A stretch of 6,008 nt of DNA, taken from IMG/VR virus record IMGVR_UViG_2541047679_000002; one strand, 5' to 3'. Below the pieces are notes generated by a model that was given only the letters and a program-made list of their open reading frames with translations, had not been told where the DNA came from and did not search any database. Position 1 is the first letter of the stretch. Every line of letters starts with the position of its first letter. Below are positions 3-6,008 of this stretch, piece after piece. This stretch comes from a virus. Lineage: Duplodnaviria > Heunggongvirae > Uroviricota > Caudoviricetes. The translations under genes were made by a program, and so were the position numbers.

Positions 3-3000
3 ACTGGTGCATCCATCTGGCTTGCCACGAAAAAAGATAAACGCTTTGACGCTGTGGTTGTCGCTGTATCCGCTAACAACATGGTTCATGTTGTGGAACA
101 ACTGGTAAACATGTACCCGGCGGCAAAAATCACCTGCGCACTGGATAATGACCGGAAATCAGCTACAGAAGGAAAAGGGAATACCGGCCTGCGGACTGGC
201 TATGAAATCTTATCGAAATTCAACGATGTCCGCTGCGTCTATCCAACTTTTGAAGACGATCCGCAAATGGAGTGCAGTGACTTCAACGACCTGCACAAAC
301 TACGTGGACTTCGTGAAACAGCACGTCAACTGTTTGCAACTGCAAACCGCCTGAAAACTGGCACTGATTTGCTATCTCTGACGCTCAACCGCCTGAAGAC
401 AATTAAGCGGGATAACCGTCGTACTTTTGCCAAAGAGCTGCTGAGAGCGGTGGATATTGGCATGCTAACCTGTCCGGTTCCTAACAGTCCGTCAGACTTA
501 TTTAACATGTTCTGCATCGTTCTGCGTGAAATGGGGCTGGAAAATATCTATCGCGCTACGGTAAAAGACCACATTGCCCGTCGCCTGAATAAAAAGTGCC
601 GTATTGCCCAGGCTCCGCGCTCATTCAGCGAACGCATAACTGATCCCAATAAACGTCCTCAACATATCACCTATAAGCGTTTTGAAACTTCGGTAATGAC
701 CGATGACGTCCTGAAGTACGTGCAATCACTACAGGGGATAGTCATCGTCCGTGCTGGTATGGGTTCCGGCAAATCTACTGGATTGTTACGACCGTTAATG
801 CATAGCTCAGAACGTGGTATCTCTGTTGCTCACCGTGTCTCCCTTATTGGTGGCCTGTGGGAAATGATGACAGAAGGAAAAGGTGTAAAAGCCGATATCC
901 TGCACTATCAGGACCCTGGCTATCAGGAAATGGCTCCATACGCCAGTAAACTGACCATCTGCATAAACTCGATTGTTAAAAACTGCTGGCAACCGTTGAT
1001 GCGCCAGCACGACTATTTTGGCTTTGACGAGGCCACACAAGGGCTACGTGCCGTTCTTTCCGGTCGGGCTATGGAAAACCCGGTGGCTGTATTCCATACG
1101 CTAATTGACGCGCTGGCCAGAACGGAACAACACCCAATCATGGTGGATGCTGATGCGAACGATCTGCTGGTTGACCTGGCTGAACTGGCTATGAAACGCC
1201 GTGAAGAACTAGGTTTACCGGCATGGCTGCAGATCCACGTAATTGAATTACCTGTTGATGTTCGCAACCGCGAAACAGGTGAGCCAATCCGGGTTTTTTA
1301 TACAGAAAAAGATCGCATTATGACCGAGGTGGTGAAAGCTGTATCGGATGGCGAAAAAATCATGTTGGCCACCGACAGCTCCACCTTTGCAGAAGATGTG
1401 ACAGCCACCCTGAGAATGCATTTTCCTGGTAAGAAATTTCTGTGTGTAAACCAGAAAAGTAAACAGGATGAAGAAGTCGATGCCTTTACCAACCAGCCAA
1501 AAGTAATGGTGATGAAATACGATGGACTGATCTACAGTCCGTCAATTTCCTCCGGGGTGTCATTTGAGAAAAAACATTTTGACCGTCATTTCGGCATGTT
1601 CTGCGGTGAAGTTGTGCCCAGCGACGCAGTGCAAATGCTACGCCGCGACCGTACAGCAAAAGAATTTATTATCGGCTTTGATAAAGCTCGTGCAAAACGC
1701 GAGACTGATCCGCAAAAAATAGAACGTGCATTCGCCCAGGCATTACTTGCTACCGCAGGCATGAACGGTGAACTGACGGATGTCGTTTTCGATGGCGACC
1801 GTATATCAATGGGGGTGGCCAATACCGACTTTACCAGGATGAAAATTAAAGCTGCCGCAATTGAAGCGTCTGCGCGTAACGACTACGCCAGCAACATGAT
1901 CTGCATCATGCACAGCGACGGTTATAAGGTATCGCCATTAGCTACCGATTATGCCGCGAATGATTTTGGTAAAGAGCTGCGCAAAGAAGCGCGGGATATT
2001 GTGTGGGAACAGACGCTGGATCTGCACCTCAATACAGAGACACCAGAAGAATCAGAGCGTGAAGAACTGCTAAAAAAACGTGCGCTAACGCTTGAAGAAC
2101 AGGCAAAACTGGTCCGCTGGGATATTGAGAACGAACTGAAATTACCGGTTGAAGAAGGCTCGCTGAAATTCTATTTCGATGGCGCTCGAGACAAAATTCG
2201 CCGTTATGAAACGATGCTGCTTGATGAAGTCACAGCCCGTCGTTATGACCGTGAAGAAGCGGCTATCAATTTTACATACGCGTACCGCCAGACCGGACAG
2301 TGGCAATATTTTGTGGTGACCGCGATGACGCGCGAGCAGGCTGATGATGTATTCAAAGCGAAATTTCCAGGAATAATCGACTACAAGGTAAAAGCTACCC
2401 CTGCTGTTGAGGTCGGCATGCGCGGATTCTATGCGCTTAAATCAGCGACTCTCCGGCAGTACTTTATCGACTGCGGTATCGACCCTGAAACTATGACCGG
2501 CGAAGCGACGCAGGAACGTCTCAAGTTCGCTAGAGACAACCTAATGACAGCAGAACGCCGTGATATGTTGAATAACGTTCTGCACATTGGTGGCTTTATG
2601 ACACCAAAAGGGAAGCCTAAAGTGCCGGAAGCACTGTTTAAAAACATCTGCGACTCTCTCGGCCTAAAAACAGGAAAACGTCGCGGCAGAGATGGCGATA
2701 AGCGCCCGACATTGCGTTTTGTTGAGCCTGAGTCTGTAGCATTTATACTTGATATTCTTGCGCAACGTCAGGAGGACGGTATGACGTTGAAAGCTCGCAA
2801 GGCGGAAAAATCAACGACCGAAGTGGATCGCGATTTGTCATTAAATATATATATGAATGGTGAAACGCGATCCACAAACACGGTGGAACAGGATTCCCCT
2901 CGTTCAGCTATATCACAGGCTTTGGCCGTATTGCCGGTGGCTGTTCCTGAGTCCTGGGCGATGAGTGCTCTGCCATCAGCTGAACTGGAATCTATCAGGG

Positions 3001-3143
3001 GGTGGTCAGTTGACAGCATCGCATACACGTTTGCAGCCCTTTATATGACTGAGTTTATGGATTTGCTGTCCGGTCATGAGATTAAGTTGCTGAAGGCTTT
3101 TATAGGCCCACGACATGCCAGCGATGAGTTTTGTGTAGTTTAG
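3..3143 (+). CDS. Replication protein, primase/helicase-like (Toprim-like motif plus P-loop NTPase); 5'-partial, continues upstream of the window
   Basis: Continuous ORF (track 54..3143, 1029 codons) whose frame stays open back to nt 3 with no stop, so the true start is upstream. Motifs read directly: DND at nt 144-152 within KITCALDNDRK (Toprim-like DxD); Walker A GMGSGKST at nt 756-779; Walker-B-like FGFDE at nt 1017-1031. Stop TAG at 3141-3143. Domain calls are from motif recognition only. Confidence 0.78.
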   Translation, partial: TGASIWLATKKDKRFDAVVVAVSANNMVHVVEQLVNMYPAAKITCALDNDRKSATEGKGNTGLRTGYEILSKFNDVRCVYPTFEDDPQMECSDFNDLHKLRGLRETARQLFATANRLKTGTDLLSLTLNRLKTIKRDNRRTFAKELLRAVDIGMLTCPVPNSPSDLFNMFCIVLREMGLENIYRATVKDHIARRLNKKCRIAQAPRSFSERITDPNKRPQHITYKRFETSVMTDDVLKYVQSLQGIVIVRAGMGSGKSTGLLRPLMHSSERGISVAHRVSLIGGLWEMMTEGKGVKADILHYQDPGYQEMAPYASKLTICINSIVKNCWQPLMRQHDYFGFDEATQGLRAVLSGRAMENPVAVFHTLIDALARTEQHPIMVDADANDLLVDLAELAMKRREELGLPAWLQIHVIELPVDVRNRETGEPIRVFYTEKDRIMTEVVKAVSDGEKIMLATDSSTFAEDVTATLRMHFPGKKFLCVNQKSKQDEEVDAFTNQPKVMVMKYDGLIYSPSISSGVSFEKKHFDRHFGMFCGEVVPSDAVQMLRRDRTAKEFIIGFDKARAKRETDPQKIERAFAQALLATAGMNGELTDVVFDGDRISMGVANTDFTRMKIKAAAIEASARNDYASNMICIMHSDGYKVSPLATDYAANDFGKELRKEARDIVWEQTLDLHLNTETPEESEREELLKKRALTLEEQAKLVRWDIENELKLPVEEGSLKFYFDGARDKIRRYETMLLDEVTARRYDREEAAINFTYAYRQTGQWQYFVVTAMTREQADDVFKAKFPGIIDYKVKATPAVEVGMRGFYALKSATLRQYFIDCGIDPETMTGEATQERLKFARDNLMTAERRDMLNNVLHIGGFMTPKGKPKVPEALFKNICDSLGLKTGKRRGRDGDKRPTLRFVEPESVAFILDILAQRQEDGMTLKARKAEKSTTEVDRDLSLNIYMNGETRSTNTVEQDSPRSAISQALAVLPVAVPESWAMSALPSAELESIRGWSVDSIAYTFAALYMTEFMDLLSGHEIKLLKAFIGPRHASDEFCVV

Positions 3144-3160
3144 AGGGTAGAAGCGTGGGA

Positions 3161-3427
3161 ATGATGCAAGAGTGCCTCGTTTTGATTGAAGGGTATGATC
3201 CGTATGTTGTTAACGTCAGTAGAATGGATACTGGCTATAGCGACTACAAAACTGGTCGTGAACTGCCGTTCACCATCATCAGGATGAATAGCTTTGGCGA
3301 TGATGATGCTGTTTATTGCTGTATAGCCAGCGATAAAAACATGGAAGACCGGACAGATGAAGCCCGTATGCTATTGAGGAAATATAAGGTAAAGCCGTTA
3401 TCAGAGAATAACGCTGAGAGGGGTTAA
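3161..3427 (+). CDS. Hypothetical small acidic protein (about 88 aa), first gene of an AT-rich three-gene cassette
   Basis: ORF in track (3131..3427). ATG at 3161 is preferred over the TTG at 3131 and GTG at 3155; purine-rich GAGGGTAGAAG lies upstream. It begins 18 nt after the replication gene stop. Stop TAA at 3425-3427. No recognisable family; start codon uncertain. Confidence 0.5.
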   Translation: MMQECLVLIEGYDPYVVNVSRMDTGYSDYKTGRELPFTIIRMNSFGDDDAVYCCIASDKNMEDRTDEARMLLRKYKVKPLSENNAERG

Positions 3428-3429
3428 AA

Positions 3430-3825
3430 ATGGCAGTTCAATCATACAAATACGAATCCCCTTTGGATAAGGGATACATTCGTATCAAGTTAAGTCGTTC
3501 TCAGCATAAGGCTATTTTTAAGGTAAGGAAAATTCGCATATTGGATGCGTATGCGTATTACTACAACGGTGAAAATGTTGTTGTTGAACACTTTCTTGCA
3601 CGATGGTTTGTAGCTCTGATTTTTGTCCCTCTCCTGTTAATTGGTACTTTTGTGGATGGTTTTCCTAGTACATGGCGGGAGATAAAGAAAGGCTTATTCC
3701 CGCGTAAGTACGGCAGATTTTCGCAAGATAGCTGGCGAGTTATACCGGGTAAACATTCTGTGGATGAGCAACCGATTGTTGATTACTGGTTGAAGCGTAT
3801 GGCTGATGCTAAAAAAGTTGATTGA
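3430..3825 (+). CDS. Hypothetical membrane protein (131 aa) with one predicted transmembrane helix
   Basis: ATG at 3430 preceded by strong SD GAGAGGGG (3416-3423, 6-nt spacer), 2 nt after the upstream stop. Hydrophobic segment WFVALIFVPLLLIGTFV, basic flanks. About 38% GC by hand count over 3430-3489. Confidence 0.65.
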   Translation: MAVQSYKYESPLDKGYIRIKLSRSQHKAIFKVRKIRILDAYAYYYNGENVVVEHFLARWFVALIFVPLLLIGTFVDGFPSTWREIKKGLFPRKYGRFSQDSWRVIPGKHSVDEQPIVDYWLKRMADAKKVD

Positions 3826-3843
3826 GTTGTGGAAGGAGTATTT

Positions 3844-4068
3844 ATGAACTGTAACAAAAATGAAGAAACTCGCCTGGTTTGGACGGTAGTAATCGGAGAT
3901 AAAAAGGGCGGTGAAGAGCCTCATTTTGATTATTCTGTGGCTTTGCAGGCTCTCATCCTTGAAGCTCAGATATACCAACAAGAGATGCAGAAGAACCCTC
4001 AATTGGAACCTCTACCAATTGGCCTATTTTGCGAGCGAGTATCAGCGGCGGAACTCCCTGATATCTGA
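3844..4068 (+). CDS. Hypothetical small protein (74 aa)
   Basis: ATG at 3844 preceded by strong SD GGAAGGAG (3831-3838, 5-nt spacer); track ORF 3829..4068 starts at an upstream GTG. Stop TGA at 4066-4068. No recognisable family. Confidence 0.58.
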   Translation: MNCNKNEETRLVWTVVIGDKKGGEEPHFDYSVALQALILEAQIYQQEMQKNPQLEPLPIGLFCERVSAAELPDI

Positions 4069-4100: not shown

Positions 4101-4129
4101 TTAGTAAAGCAAACTATAAAAACACCTGT

Positions 4130-4149
4130 CCCCGTGACTGGTCACGGGG
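4130..4149. promoter_or_regulatory. Perfect 9-bp inverted repeat CCCCGTGAC-TG-GTCACGGGG; candidate protein-binding palindrome or hairpin
   Basis: Left arm 4130-4138 and right arm 4141-4149 are exact reverse complements. Not followed by a T-run on the + strand, so not a canonical intrinsic terminator; on the minus strand a T5 run starts 6 nt after the stem. Confidence 0.3.
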
Positions 4150-4169
4150 TAAAATGTCTTTGCAAATTA

Positions 4170-4199
4170 TTGACGTGTGCGTCGTTTTGACGGTAAAGT
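4170..4199 (+). promoter_or_regulatory. Candidate sigma70-type promoter TTGACG-N18-TAAAGT
   Basis: TTGACG at 4170-4175 and TAAAGT at 4194-4199 (18-bp spacer); predicted start near 4207. Hexamer match only. Confidence 0.3.
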
Positions 4200-4206
4200 T
4201 ACTCCG

Positions 4207-4282
4207 CTGCGGTAAATCCCGCAGTCGGGACTCTCAACCCCGAAATCCGAACGACGCACAACACGCGCCAGCGTGTTTTTTT
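4207..4282 (+). ncRNA. Candidate small terminated transcript (about 76 nt): sRNA or leader/attenuator
   Basis: Bounded by the candidate promoter and the intrinsic terminator. Contains hairpin CTGCGG/CCGCAG (4206-4211 / 4219-4224) and a second possible stem CGGG/CCCG whose loop carries ACTCTCAAC (4230-4238). The overlapping track ORF 4154..4369 runs through the terminator and is unlikely to be coding. Confidence 0.3.
4260..4282 (+). terminator. Rho-independent terminator
   Basis: Stem ACACGC (4261-4266), loop GCCA, stem GCGTGT (4271-4276), followed directly by a run of T ending at 4282. Confidence 0.6.
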
Positions 4283-4364
4283 GTGTGTATAAGCCTGCGC
4301 ATATCCGAATTATGGTGGCTCAGGCGGGGCAGCCGAAAGGCTGGCCGGTGTCGTTTGGGCCGGT

Positions 4365-4420
4365 GTTGAGAACCCCGCTTGGGCTACCACCCTATAGAGA
4401 TTCTCAACTCTGGTGGTAGC
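4365..4420 (+). promoter_or_regulatory. Interleaved complementary boxes in the icd-like leader; candidate antisense-RNA/target pairs (P1 c4-type) or RNA pseudoknot
   Basis: GTTGAGAA (4365-4372) is the exact reverse complement of TTCTCAAC (4401-4408); GCTACCACC (4383-4391) is the exact reverse complement of GGTGGTAGC (4412-4420). Order is A, B, A', B' (crossing), ending 29 nt upstream of the icd-like ATG. Confidence 0.4.
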
Positions 4421-4448
4421 ACTGTTCTTCCAAACAAGAGTGCATACC

Positions 4449-4613
4449 ATGTTCAAATTCAAATTTGCGGCAGTCGTTCGCACAGACAAAAAGTCACACA
4501 TCCATCATCTTTCCACTATCGCGTCATCTGAACGGGAAGCTCGTCGCCAGTTCGCCAGCCGGTTTGTCCTGGTATTGTCTGCCCGTATTCCGGTGCGCGA
4601 GGTGGCTGCATGA
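4449..4613 (+). CDS. icd: Icd-like protein (host cell division inhibitor Icd family), 54 aa
   Basis: ATG at 4449 with weak SD AAGAG upstream. Translation MFKFKFAAVVRTDKKSHIHHLSTIASSEREARRQFASRFVLVLSARIPVREVAA shows the SEREAR and AR(I/L)PV pattern I recall for Icd-like proteins of enterobacterial prophages. Track ORF 4413..4613 starts at an upstream GTG lacking an SD. Confidence 0.7.
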   Translation: MFKFKFAAVVRTDKKSHIHHLSTIASSEREARRQFASRFVLVLSARIPVREVAA

Positions 4614-4843
4614 ATCAGGTAAAAATGAACACTGTTGGCCTGCTGGAATCGTTGGATGAACGTCTGGCTCAGGTCTATGCGCTTGTGTCATCAGCCCATC
4701 GTACAGTCTCCAGTTGTGAGGCGTCGATTTATCTCTCAGAAGCCGGGAAGCTCCTTCAAATCGCGTGTGAGTTGACACACGAAGCACAGGGGTATTCAGC
4801 ATCTCTCTCGTCGCAATTGCAGCACAATAAGGAGGCCAAATGA
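4610..4843 (+). CDS. Hypothetical protein (77 aa), translationally coupled between icd-like and antirepressor genes
   Basis: ATG at 4610 overlaps the icd-like stop (ATGA, 4610-4613); its own stop overlaps the next start (ATGA, 4840-4843). Predicted helical, no recognisable family; an internal ATG at 4625 is an alternative start. Confidence 0.55.
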   Translation: MNQVKMNTVGLLESLDERLAQVYALVSSAHRTVSSCEASIYLSEAGKLLQIACELTHEAQGYSASLSSQLQHNKEAK

Positions 4844-5616
4844 GCGCGTTAGCTGTATTTTCGTTTCAGGAAGAGCATCAGGTTCGTGTAGTGATGATTA
4901 ACGGTGAGCCGTGGTTTGTTGCATCTGATGTGTGTATGGCGGCGGGTATTGATTCTACGGCCATTAGAAAGTTGGATGAGGACGAAAAGGGTCTGCATTT
5001 AATGCAGACCCCTGGCGGATACCAGAATGTTTCAATCATCAACGAGTCAGGTCTATACACCCTGATCCTCCGCTGCCGTGACGCGGTGAAGCAAGGCACA
5101 ACAGCTTGGCGGTTTCGCAAATGGGTAACGAACGAAGTCTTGCCCTCTATTCGCAAAAATGGAGAGTACGTTTACATCGAGCCTGAGCCAATGCGAGCAG
5201 CGGAGCCGTTGAACGGGAGGCAGAAAGCGTATCTGCGAGGGCTGATTAACGATATAGCACAAAGTTTTCGGTGCCGAAATGCCTGGATCAGTGGAATATG
5301 GTTGGCTTTGCGTCGGGCGTGTCGTAATCCATCCCCGAACCCCATAACGGTTGATGATTTGCCAGCAATTGCGGCAGAACTGCGCAGGATTTTGACGGCT
5401 GCTGAGTCGGCATTGAGGAACATGCGCACGTATGAACGGGAGTTGTTGCGTGATGTTGTTCGTGGGGGTAGGCGGAGTATGTCGTGTGGTGATTTGCCCA
5501 TCATCGATATCAACTCTGATCTGGAAAAGGCGTTACCCGCACATTTTGAACTGGCAGTTCAAAAACTTGAGCAGTTATCCGCGCAGTTAAAGCCAGCAGA
5601 AATCACTAATAAATAG
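4840..5616 (+). CDS. Bro-N domain antirepressor-like protein (258 aa)
   Basis: Strong SD AAGGAGG (4829-4835) 4 nt before ATG 4840. N-terminal about 110 aa match the Bro-N pattern (FSFQ...GEPWFVASDVC...LDEDEKG...GGYQ...INESGLYTLILR...WVTNEVLPSIRKNGEY). C-terminal about 140 aa not recognised. Stop TAG at 5614-5616. Confidence 0.85.
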   Translation: MSALAVFSFQEEHQVRVVMINGEPWFVASDVCMAAGIDSTAIRKLDEDEKGLHLMQTPGGYQNVSIINESGLYTLILRCRDAVKQGTTAWRFRKWVTNEVLPSIRKNGEYVYIEPEPMRAAEPLNGRQKAYLRGLINDIAQSFRCRNAWISGIWLALRRACRNPSPNPITVDDLPAIAAELRRILTAAESALRNMRTYERELLRDVVRGGRRSMSCGDLPIIDINSDLEKALPAHFELAVQKLEQLSAQLKPAEITNK

Positions 5617-5788: not shown

Positions 5789-6008
5789 TTAGCCGAAATA
5801 TGTCAGCCATGCTAACTGCATTGCTGACATGGGGCTGTTTGCACTGCCTGACCACGCATAATTCTGGCCATTATAATGAAACTCAACAACGTATGAGCCA
5901 TCACCAATATTTCTCACAGGCTTAAATACCGGCTTAGATACAGGTGAAGAAGGCGCGGGCGGTTGCTGTTCTTCTACGCTCTCTTCCTCTTCCTCTTCCT
6001 CTTCCTCT
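5789..6008 (-). CDS. Hypothetical protein, 3'-terminal part only (gene start lies beyond the right window edge); poly-Glu tract, Pro-rich linker, small C-terminal domain
   Basis: Hand translation of the reverse complement from nt 6007 gives 72 sense codons with no stop: EEEEEEEEESVEEQQPPAPSSPVSKPVFKPVRNIGDGSYVVEFHYNGQNYAWSGSANSPMSAMQLAWLTYFG, ending at TAA (complement of 5789-5791). Not in the ORF track because it has no start in the window. Confidence 0.55.
   Translation of the reverse strand, partial: EEEEEEEEESVEEQQPPAPSSPVSKPVFKPVRNIGDGSYVVEFHYNGQNYAWSGSANSPMSAMQLAWLTYFG
5981..6008. repeat. Hexanucleotide tandem repeat (CTCTTC)n, at least 4.7 copies, running off the window edge
   Basis: CTCTTC repeated from 5981 to the end of the window; on the minus strand this reads (GAAGAG)n = Glu-Glu repeats inside the partial CDS. 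Confidence 0.85.

Follow-up and report, generated by a model that had tools for sequence, protein, structure and literature searches.

A Toprim primase joined to a UL9-like helicase, with a candidate intragenic origin: RepA of an N15-like linear phage-plasmid

INTRODUCTION

The first 3,143 nucleotides (nt) of the window, a 6,008-nt stretch of DNA from a tailed-phage record (Caudoviricetes; IMG/VR record IMGVR_UViG_2541047679_000002), raise a question about how a viral genome starts its replication: is the long gene that they carry an unusual initiator enlarged by several hundred residues of new sequence, or a known one that profile libraries cover only in part, and where would the origin lie on which it acts? 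An earlier note, made from the sequence alone, had read the product as an unusually large replication protein, with about 700 residues of unassigned sequence behind a P-loop domain, and had set it beside phage P4 alpha and the primase-helicases of satellite and phage-inducible chromosomal island (PICI) elements. Here we report that the open reading frame (ORF) very probably (at roughly 85% by our estimate) encodes residues 282–1327 of RepA, the sole replication initiator encoded by an N15-like linear phage-plasmid, with the domain architecture, the origin of replication (ori) inside its own gene and the mechanism proposed below.

The RepA proteins of phages N15 and PY54 carry a DnaG primase at the N-terminus of a superfamily 2 (SF2) helicase, and their role as replicative helicases has been confirmed experimentally (PMC4889955); the same paper, citing Mardanov 2004 and Ziegelin 2005, reports that both show primase and helicase activity and start replication specifically at their origin. 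Circular replication needs repA only (PMC10612081, with reference to Ziegelin 2005 and Mardanov & Ravin 2006). A repA gene convergent with the protelomerase gene, telN, is the hallmark of linear plasmid-like phages, or telomere phages, which are recognised by a prophage repressor upstream and a convergent protelomerase no more than 10 kb downstream (PMC10432266).

RESULTS

The reading frame belongs to the RepA family of telomere phages

The frame carries no stop from base 3 to base 3140 and ends with a TAG at 3141–3143, which gives 1046 codons and an open 5΄ edge; since ORFs that run off the window edge are not listed by the ORF caller, the listing gives 54..3143. The earlier statement that the protein exceeds 1046 amino acids (aa) was borne out, the first 281 or so repA codons lying upstream of the window. 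That the ORF is a real gene follows from its 111 database homologues, from 161 related IMG/VR loci and from a confident AlphaFold2 model of its product, built on an alignment of 58 family members (mean predicted local distance difference test, pLDDT, 87.5; predicted template modelling score 0.79). Residue numbers below are those of the 1046-residue fragment, unless a full-length protein is named, and the coordinates of all features are collected in Table 1.

Over its full length the window shows 98% nucleotide identity to Escherichia phage YDC107_1 (genus Ravinvirus), and 93–96% to many linear "plasmids" of Escherichia coli, E. fergusonii, E. albertii and Shigella. The YDC107_1 repA gene (positions 4160–8143 of the related locus L002) codes for 1327 aa, of which the window holds residues 282–1327. 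In tblastn comparisons, N15 gp37 (RepA) is 74% identical and PY54 RepA 50% identical, each over 99% of the fragment, followed by the RepA proteins of VP882 (32%, with 84% of the fragment covered) and phiHAP-1 (29%, 80% covered). The PHROGs family phrog_4913, annotated as 'replication', spans aa 1–1034 (profile positions 269–1288 of 1290, E = 0), and the nearest 90% protein cluster has 1187 members. The supposedly unusual size turned out to be the norm of the family: the full-length protein of 1327 aa compares with 1324 aa in N15 gp37 and 1330 aa in PY54 RepA, and full-length homologues down to about 41% identity, more than 100 relatives in all, measure 1305–1340 aa.

The genomic context points the same way. 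Related records share the order cI-like repressor/cro, repA, a few small variable genes, an Icd/antirepressor operon and a convergent protelomerase; the annotations of two related loci (L001 and L002) place the repressor upstream of repA and the convergent protelomerase within the 10 kb downstream, and the window itself ends in the 3΄ part of telN. The source element would be a YDC107_1-like telomere phage, tailed, 46 kb long and carrying its own structural genes. All the sequence-testable defining features of the N15/PY54 RepA family (collinear homology, primase motifs, SF2 core and genomic context) were thus found and, judged by its sequence, the protein is a member of that family and belongs to already known biology.

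The YDC107_1 record (CP025712.1, 32.0–40.0 kb; L002) contains a mirror-image duplication: each strand has Bro-N, gp31-like and protelomerase genes, the second copy of the last being broken into fragments, and in several records the window matches two places. The pattern suggests either that the assembly ran on through the hairpin telomere or that the molecule is a head-to-head dimer.

A Toprim primase is joined to an SF2 motor that resembles UL9

The DND motif, at aa 48–50 (nt 144–152), and a GNTG motif mark the Toprim domain, D48, N49, D50 (the DxD motif), G59, N60 and G62 being invariant in the 58 sequences. The window begins shortly downstream of the conserved Toprim glutamate; in the family consensus this residue stands in EGFATGAS, and the YDC107_1 gene has it. 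On a full-length relative Toprim_3 matches aa 274–383 with an E-value of 1.6e-4 and 22.5 bits, below the Pfam gathering score of 27.2, and Pfam gave no significant match on the sub-fragment aa 1–246. Together with the phrog_2249 match on aa 1–118, the Toprim_3 match supports the earlier assignment of the DND motif. Behind the primase, a basic helical bridge leads to the helicase.

The P-loop motifs had been correctly assigned as well. Walker A (GMGSGKST, aa 252–259) follows the DND motif after about 202 aa; the Walker-B-like FGFDE stands at aa 339–343 (nt 1017–1031), and within and after it comes DEAT (aa 342–345), the SF2 motif II. Thus DND, GMGSGKST and FGFDE are all present at the spacing first described, with 703 aa following the Walker-B-like motif, and the call of a replication primase-helicase agrees with phrog_4913, with phrog_2249 ('DNA primase') and with the SF2 helicase matches. 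Motifs I and II, DADAN, YSPxISSGVS and QMLRRDR are invariant in the family and located in the two RecA-like lobes of the model. The sole Pfam match on the fragment was Herpes_ori_bp (PF02399; aa 241–393, 27.5 bits against a cutoff of 20), which covers profile positions 46–198 of 820 only. When the family sequence profile was compared with the PDB, UL9 of HSV-1 (herpes simplex virus 1) was the sole match at a meaningful E-value (1e-7), and a Foldseek search with the model placed HSV-1 UL9 on top (9hgi/9hgj, E 3.6e-15), ahead of helicases of the DEAD-box and RecQ types, whose E-values are at least 6e-8. Sequence and model thus agree that the helicase is an SF2, DEAT-box, UL9-like motor and not one of superfamily 3 (SF3). 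It follows that some 220 of the 700 residues left unassigned simply complete the two lobes of this motor.

This bears directly on the comparison with P4 alpha, according to which the ORF would come from a satellite or PICI-type element and code for its primase-helicase, enlarged by some 550 aa of new sequence with a role in helper interaction or in other activities. The motifs behind that reading were confirmed and, as in P4 alpha, one polypeptide unites a primase, an NTPase and further sequence; priming, an NTP-driven helicase and presumed origin recognition would be combined in both. However, P4 alpha is an SF3 helicase of 777 aa, whereas the RepA motor has the DEAT box of an SF2 helicase and is best matched by UL9, and no SF3, D5 or P4-alpha family match was obtained in Pfam, NCBIfam or PHROGs, so that the likeness in the motor is one of analogy and not of homology. 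Moreover, the element is not a satellite but a 46-kb tailed telomere phage of N15-like, phage-plasmid type with its own structural genes, and a length of about 1320 aa conserved in more than 100 relatives implies that nothing was recently added. We therefore consider this P4-alpha-like reading highly improbable.

The region behind the motor is folded and in part restricted to telomere phages

The NCBIfam model NF042913 (plasmid replication protein, CyRepA1 family) matches aa 244–753 with 253.6 bits against a cutoff of 200 (profile positions 2–498 of 595), and so takes in the helical domain of aa 561–753, which is common to more distant primase-helicase initiators of about 1050–1400 aa. Past aa 753 the whole protein gave no NCBIfam match, and neither Pfam nor NCBIfam matched the separate fragments aa 555–930 and 930–1046. 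A phmmer search of 1.84 billion representative proteins, with the C-terminal 491 residues as query, returned only 62 clusters: the long matches (about 900–1400 aa) all align in their own C-terminal part, and the distant representatives align only with query positions 1–200, that is with aa 556–755, the helical domain.

A second AlphaFold2 model, of aa 555–1046 alone (pLDDT 87.7), served as query for structural searches. Foldseek gave no PDB match with an E-value below 0.04, and the 50 matches listed include no UL9 chain; weak matches to winged-helix proteins of the LuxR/MarR/RepE type were set aside as not interpretable. Profile searches of the PDB gave no more than weak, chance-level matches, both with aa 556–932 (PBX1 homeobox, E 0.39) and with the tail (helix-turn-helix regions of MecI and Crp, E 0.15–0.4). 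By sequence conservation and modelling, then, aa 754–1046 are folded, conserved and restricted to the RepA lineage of telomere phages, with no structural precedent detected in these searches. Invariant residues there include R807, G825, G833 and R922. The most basic stretch, aa 867–930, has a net charge of +5 and carries KTGKRRGRDGDKRPTLRF between a helix and a β-hairpin. In the first model pLDDT falls below 50 only at aa 931–964 and in the last nine residues; between these, the tail has the family consensus A..P.P..W....L...EL..LA..P...I..T.AGLY, in which the P, W, L and E positions are conserved, and the last 12 or so residues of the protein differ from those of most relatives.

The size of the unassigned part can now be restated. 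Of the roughly 700 residues in question, the 220 or so that complete the SF2 core and about 190 covered by CyRepA1 have an assignment, and the description holds for aa 754–1046, where neither a domain of Pfam or NCBIfam nor a solved structure was matched. The earlier note had made its case depend on profile searches, and these largely cover the protein, phrog_4913 over aa 1–1034 and CyRepA1 above its cutoff over aa 244–753; the replication protein had been spotted correctly and over-read as unusual. Its idea that the C-terminal part carries origin-related functions is reasonable. By elimination, and by loose analogy with the order of subdomains in UL9 (a helicase-proximal subdomain, a small DNA-reading subdomain and a C-terminal extension), we infer that aa 561–930 would most likely be the origin-recognition part. 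Carried further, the same analogy would make the whole of aa 561–930 a diverged UL9 C-terminal origin-binding domain, and RepA the fusion of a primase with an entire protein of the UL9 type, with nothing specific to its lineage. An RVKNL-like motif, the DNA-reading element of UL9, was not found in the C-terminal part of RepA, and no UL9 chain appeared in the structural search above. We regard this fusion as unlikely and prefer, for aa 754–1046, a region restricted to the telomere-phage lineage.

A conserved element within the 3΄ part of repA is a candidate origin

The 53-bp element reads GTGGATCGCG-ATTTGTCATTAAATATATATATGAATGGTGAAA-CGCGATCCAC, two perfectly inverted 10-bp arms flanking a 33-bp, A+T-rich core that contains TTAAATATATATATGAAT. 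Each arm holds one GATC (at 2826 and 2869), a sequence that is not over-represented window-wide (17 sites, where 22.6 would be expected). In single-stranded form the element is far better at folding into a hairpin than shuffled sequences are (z = -4.7).

For 37 diverged repA genes, taken from IMG/VR loci and aligned by codon, we scored codon identity over pairs that code for the same amino acid. Against a baseline of 0.44 (standard deviation 0.046), a single peak of synonymous constraint rises to 0.68–0.82 at aa 931–965 (z = 8.3), and no other part of the alignment exceeds 0.58. Amino-acid identity is the lowest in the protein there, about 0.3, and the peak coincides with the modelled disordered linker. 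The element is kept in its nucleotide sequence in both N15 and PY54, and across the 37 genes as GGATC..ATATAGATAT..GATCC; GGATC repeats, a ATATAGATAT-like core and GATCC were seen in every clade, the VP882-like ones included. It also coincides with three 11-bp repeat_regions annotated by the depositors of the N15 record U63085.1. On these grounds we take positions 2823–2875 to be a candidate intragenic ori.

The inner GGATC repeat is present in N15 and in the 94% clade, and has been lost in the lineage of the window, YDC107_1 and the E. fergusonii plasmid: at window positions 2833–2850, in comparison with N15, a further related locus (L007) and others, TTTGTCATT or TTTATCGTT stands instead of TTTGGATCT, and only the outer, GATC-bearing arms remain.

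Could the constraint have another cause, the element serving as a sopC partition site, as a promoter or terminator within the gene or as a structured RNA, or overlapping a small gene? An N15 centromere is stated to lie within repA (PMC2847241), and the element can form a hairpin. However, the likely sopC sequence, the palindrome GTGAC-NN-GTCAC, is a different one, which lies in N15 repA at about aa 208 of the full-length protein, upstream of the window, and has its sole window copy at 4134–4145; a sopC centromere at the peak was rejected on sequence and location. An overlapping ORF was likewise rejected as the cause of the peak, since no alternative reading frame across the element stays open or conserved in the family, and the Rfam scan found no match there. 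In turn, the A+T-rich core, the GATC repeats, the inverted arms and the position in the 3΄ part of repA fit the published origins of N15 and PY54. Some other cis element is accordingly improbable in our view, and a candidate ori remains the preferred reading. Reading the arms as DnaA boxes (ATCCACA) was dropped because only the GGATC core is conserved across clades.

Two minor synonymous bumps, at about 123–170 and 246–296 (aa 41–55 and 82–98), were seen in the Toprim region; they reach 0.56–0.58 against 0.44, some 3 standard deviations, and are far weaker than the peak at the element.

Other features of the window

Downstream of repA, on the plus strand, a cassette at 3131–4068 has a low G+C content (about 0.42), a strong GC skew and three small ORFs (phrog_18790, phrog_15458 and phrog_21657); a 131-aa ORF at 3430–3825 has one strongly hydrophobic segment, at about aa 60–78. 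The cassette corresponds to the variable slot between repA and telN of the telomere phages, which in other members holds TelA-ImmA, a toxin and its immunity partner (PMC12042878), or lysis modules of the TF-smORF kind (PMC10432266). Farther on, isrK and C4 RNA matches, an Icd-like ORF, a gp31-like ORF and a Bro-N/Ant gene make up a P1/N15-type RNA-controlled antirepressor operon; the ORFs 4154–4369 and 4273–4419, which overlap the RNAs, are probably not genes. An inverted repeat at 4118–4161 (core 4134–4145) is centred on GTGACTGGTCAC. N15 has three copies of its GTGAC-NN-GTCAC palindrome, at 28549, 33237 (the copy in repA) and 39269, and the palindrome probably represents a dispersed centromere of the sopC type.

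Table 1. Features of the window; residues are numbered from the first complete codon of the open frame.
Feature	Residues (aa)	Position (nt)	Strand	Evidence or remark
repA coding sequence, C-terminal 1046 codons and stop	1–1046	3..3143	+	Open frame; 99% protein identity to YDC107_1 RepA
Toprim (DnaG-type) primase, C-terminal two thirds	1–118	3..356	+	phrog_2249 DNA primase, E 2e-18
Helical bridge, primase to helicase	119–215	357..647	+	Net charge +8; AlphaFold2 helices 123–206, pLDDT 83–96
SF2 helicase core, two RecA-like lobes	216–560	648..1682	+	Herpes_ori_bp, UL9 matches, invariant motifs
RecA-like lobe 1	216–415			AlphaFold2 model
RecA-like lobe 2	416–560			AlphaFold2 model
Helicase motif I, GMGSGKST	252–259	756–779	+
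Helicase motif II, DEAT	342–345	1026–1037	+
Helicase motif DADAN		1146–1160	+
Helicase motif YSPSISSGVS (family YSPxISSGVS)		1533–1562	+
Helicase motif VI-like, QMLRRDR		1632–1652	+
Post-helicase helical domain	561–753	1683..2261	+	CyRepA1 covers 244–753; pLDDT ~90
Lineage-specific folded region, candidate origin-recognition module	754–930	2262..2792	+
Four-stranded α/β unit	754–808 (strand unit 755–800)			AlphaFold2 model
Helices	809–866			AlphaFold2 model
Basic helix-strand-strand-helix unit	867–930 (875–924)			Contains KTGKRRGRDGDKRPTLRF
Disordered linker; encoding DNA is the conserved cis element	931–964	2793..2894	+	pLDDT <50 in both models (380–406 of the second)
Candidate ori core, 53 bp		2823..2875	.	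Repeat search, synonymous conservation, N15 annotation
C-terminal helical tail, five helices over 966–1034	965–1046	2895..3140	+	pLDDT 81–91
isrK (Rfam, gathering-level)		4206–4281	+	54.7 bits
C4 antisense RNA (Rfam, gathering-level)		4308–4394	+	73.8 bits
Icd-like ORF		4413–4613	+	Just downstream of the isrK/C4 matches
gp31-like ORF		4610–4843	+
Bro-N/Ant antirepressor		4840–5616	+
telN (convergent protelomerase), 3΄ end		5789–6008	−	Correspondence with L002 10789–12690

DISCUSSION

In this work, we have asked what the long gene at the edge of a viral DNA window codes for and where its product would start replication. With N15 gp37 and PY54 RepA the protein shares collinearity over the whole fragment, total length, the Toprim and SF2 motifs and the gene neighbourhood, and its gene carries the GATC and A+T-rich element at matching codon positions; the lineage of the window differs from them in the loss of the inner GGATC, which leaves a clean 10-bp inverted repeat, and in the last residues of the tail. 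The cyanobacterial plasmid initiators of the CyRepA1 type (Slr7037) have the same layout of a Toprim-related N-terminus and a DEXDc helicase joined by helices (PMC10079941). Their family model stops at aa 753 of the RepA fragment, and the module of aa 754–1046, the intragenic ori element and the telomere-phage context lie outside the family description.

In its motor and origin layout the system is like that of HSV-1 UL9, which is the best match of the RepA SF2 core in sequence and in structure. Both would be initiators that combine origin recognition with unwinding, although no UL9-type C-terminal DNA-binding domain with the RVKNL motif was found in RepA. In the HSV-1 origin OriS, inverted boxes surround an A+T-rich spacer (PMC12543377), and the repA element is similar in having inverted recognition sequences around an A+T-rich spacer and in being hairpin-capable once unwound.

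By analogy with UL9 acting on OriS, and on the basis of the published work on N15 and PY54, we propose that RepA would bind the 53-bp element at its GATC-bearing arms, most likely with the module behind the helicase (aa 561–930), and that the UL9-like motor would then open the A+T-rich spacer, where an extruded hairpin may act as an intermediate, as in OriS*. The Toprim domain would lay primers on both strands, the host polymerase would replicate bidirectionally from within repA, and the convergent protelomerase encoded downstream would resolve the replicated hairpin telomeres. Initiation inside repA, its bidirectionality, RepA as the only phage protein needed and telomere resolution by the protelomerase are taken here from homology or from the literature. 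In an alanine-scan study of PY54 RepA (Ziegelin 2005), the primase and helicase motifs are said to be essential. The PY54 origin reportedly spans 212 bp of the 3΄ part of repA (Ziegelin 2005), which would fit our map of domains and ori.

Three points weigh against this proposal. The inner GGATC has been lost in the lineage studied here, which makes the number of protein-binding sites uncertain. The call of an ori at 2823–2875 draws on conservation and on published statements about N15 and PY54. Finally, the origin-bearing 3΄ end of repA is said to be dispensable for PY54 RepA acting in trans (Ziegelin 2005); if so, the tail domain would have no essential role in initiation. This reported dispensability also fits the map of domains and ori.

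Why would a cis site settle inside an essential gene? Our proposal is that the ori may have come to lie in the DNA coding for the linker because the protein imposes almost no constraint there, which would leave the DNA free to serve as a site for binding and melting. A bolder version holds that aa 754–930 are an undescribed origin-recognition module and the tail, aa 965–1046, a new regulatory or host-contact domain, that the ori in the linker DNA is a selected design in which protein constraint was relaxed for origin use, and that initiation is coupled to translation or transcription of the gene itself. We can entertain this only tentatively, and on balance doubt it.

As a discovery the finding has little weight, the RepA family being long known: N15 and PY54 RepA have been studied genetically and biochemically for two decades, and this replicon is that of the commercial pJAZZ linear vectors. 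What may prove useful is a domain map for a part of the protein on which the profile libraries are silent, with some 290 aa (754–1046) predicted to be folded and conserved and with no match to a solved structure. The HSV-1 OriS/UL9 structures appeared only in 2025–26, and the likeness of origin and helicase to them makes a structure-guided test of origin opening by RepA straightforward. The candidate ori core also matches, give or take a few codons, the one disordered, amino-acid-variable stretch of the protein, which would provide a rationale for a cis-acting site inside an essential gene.

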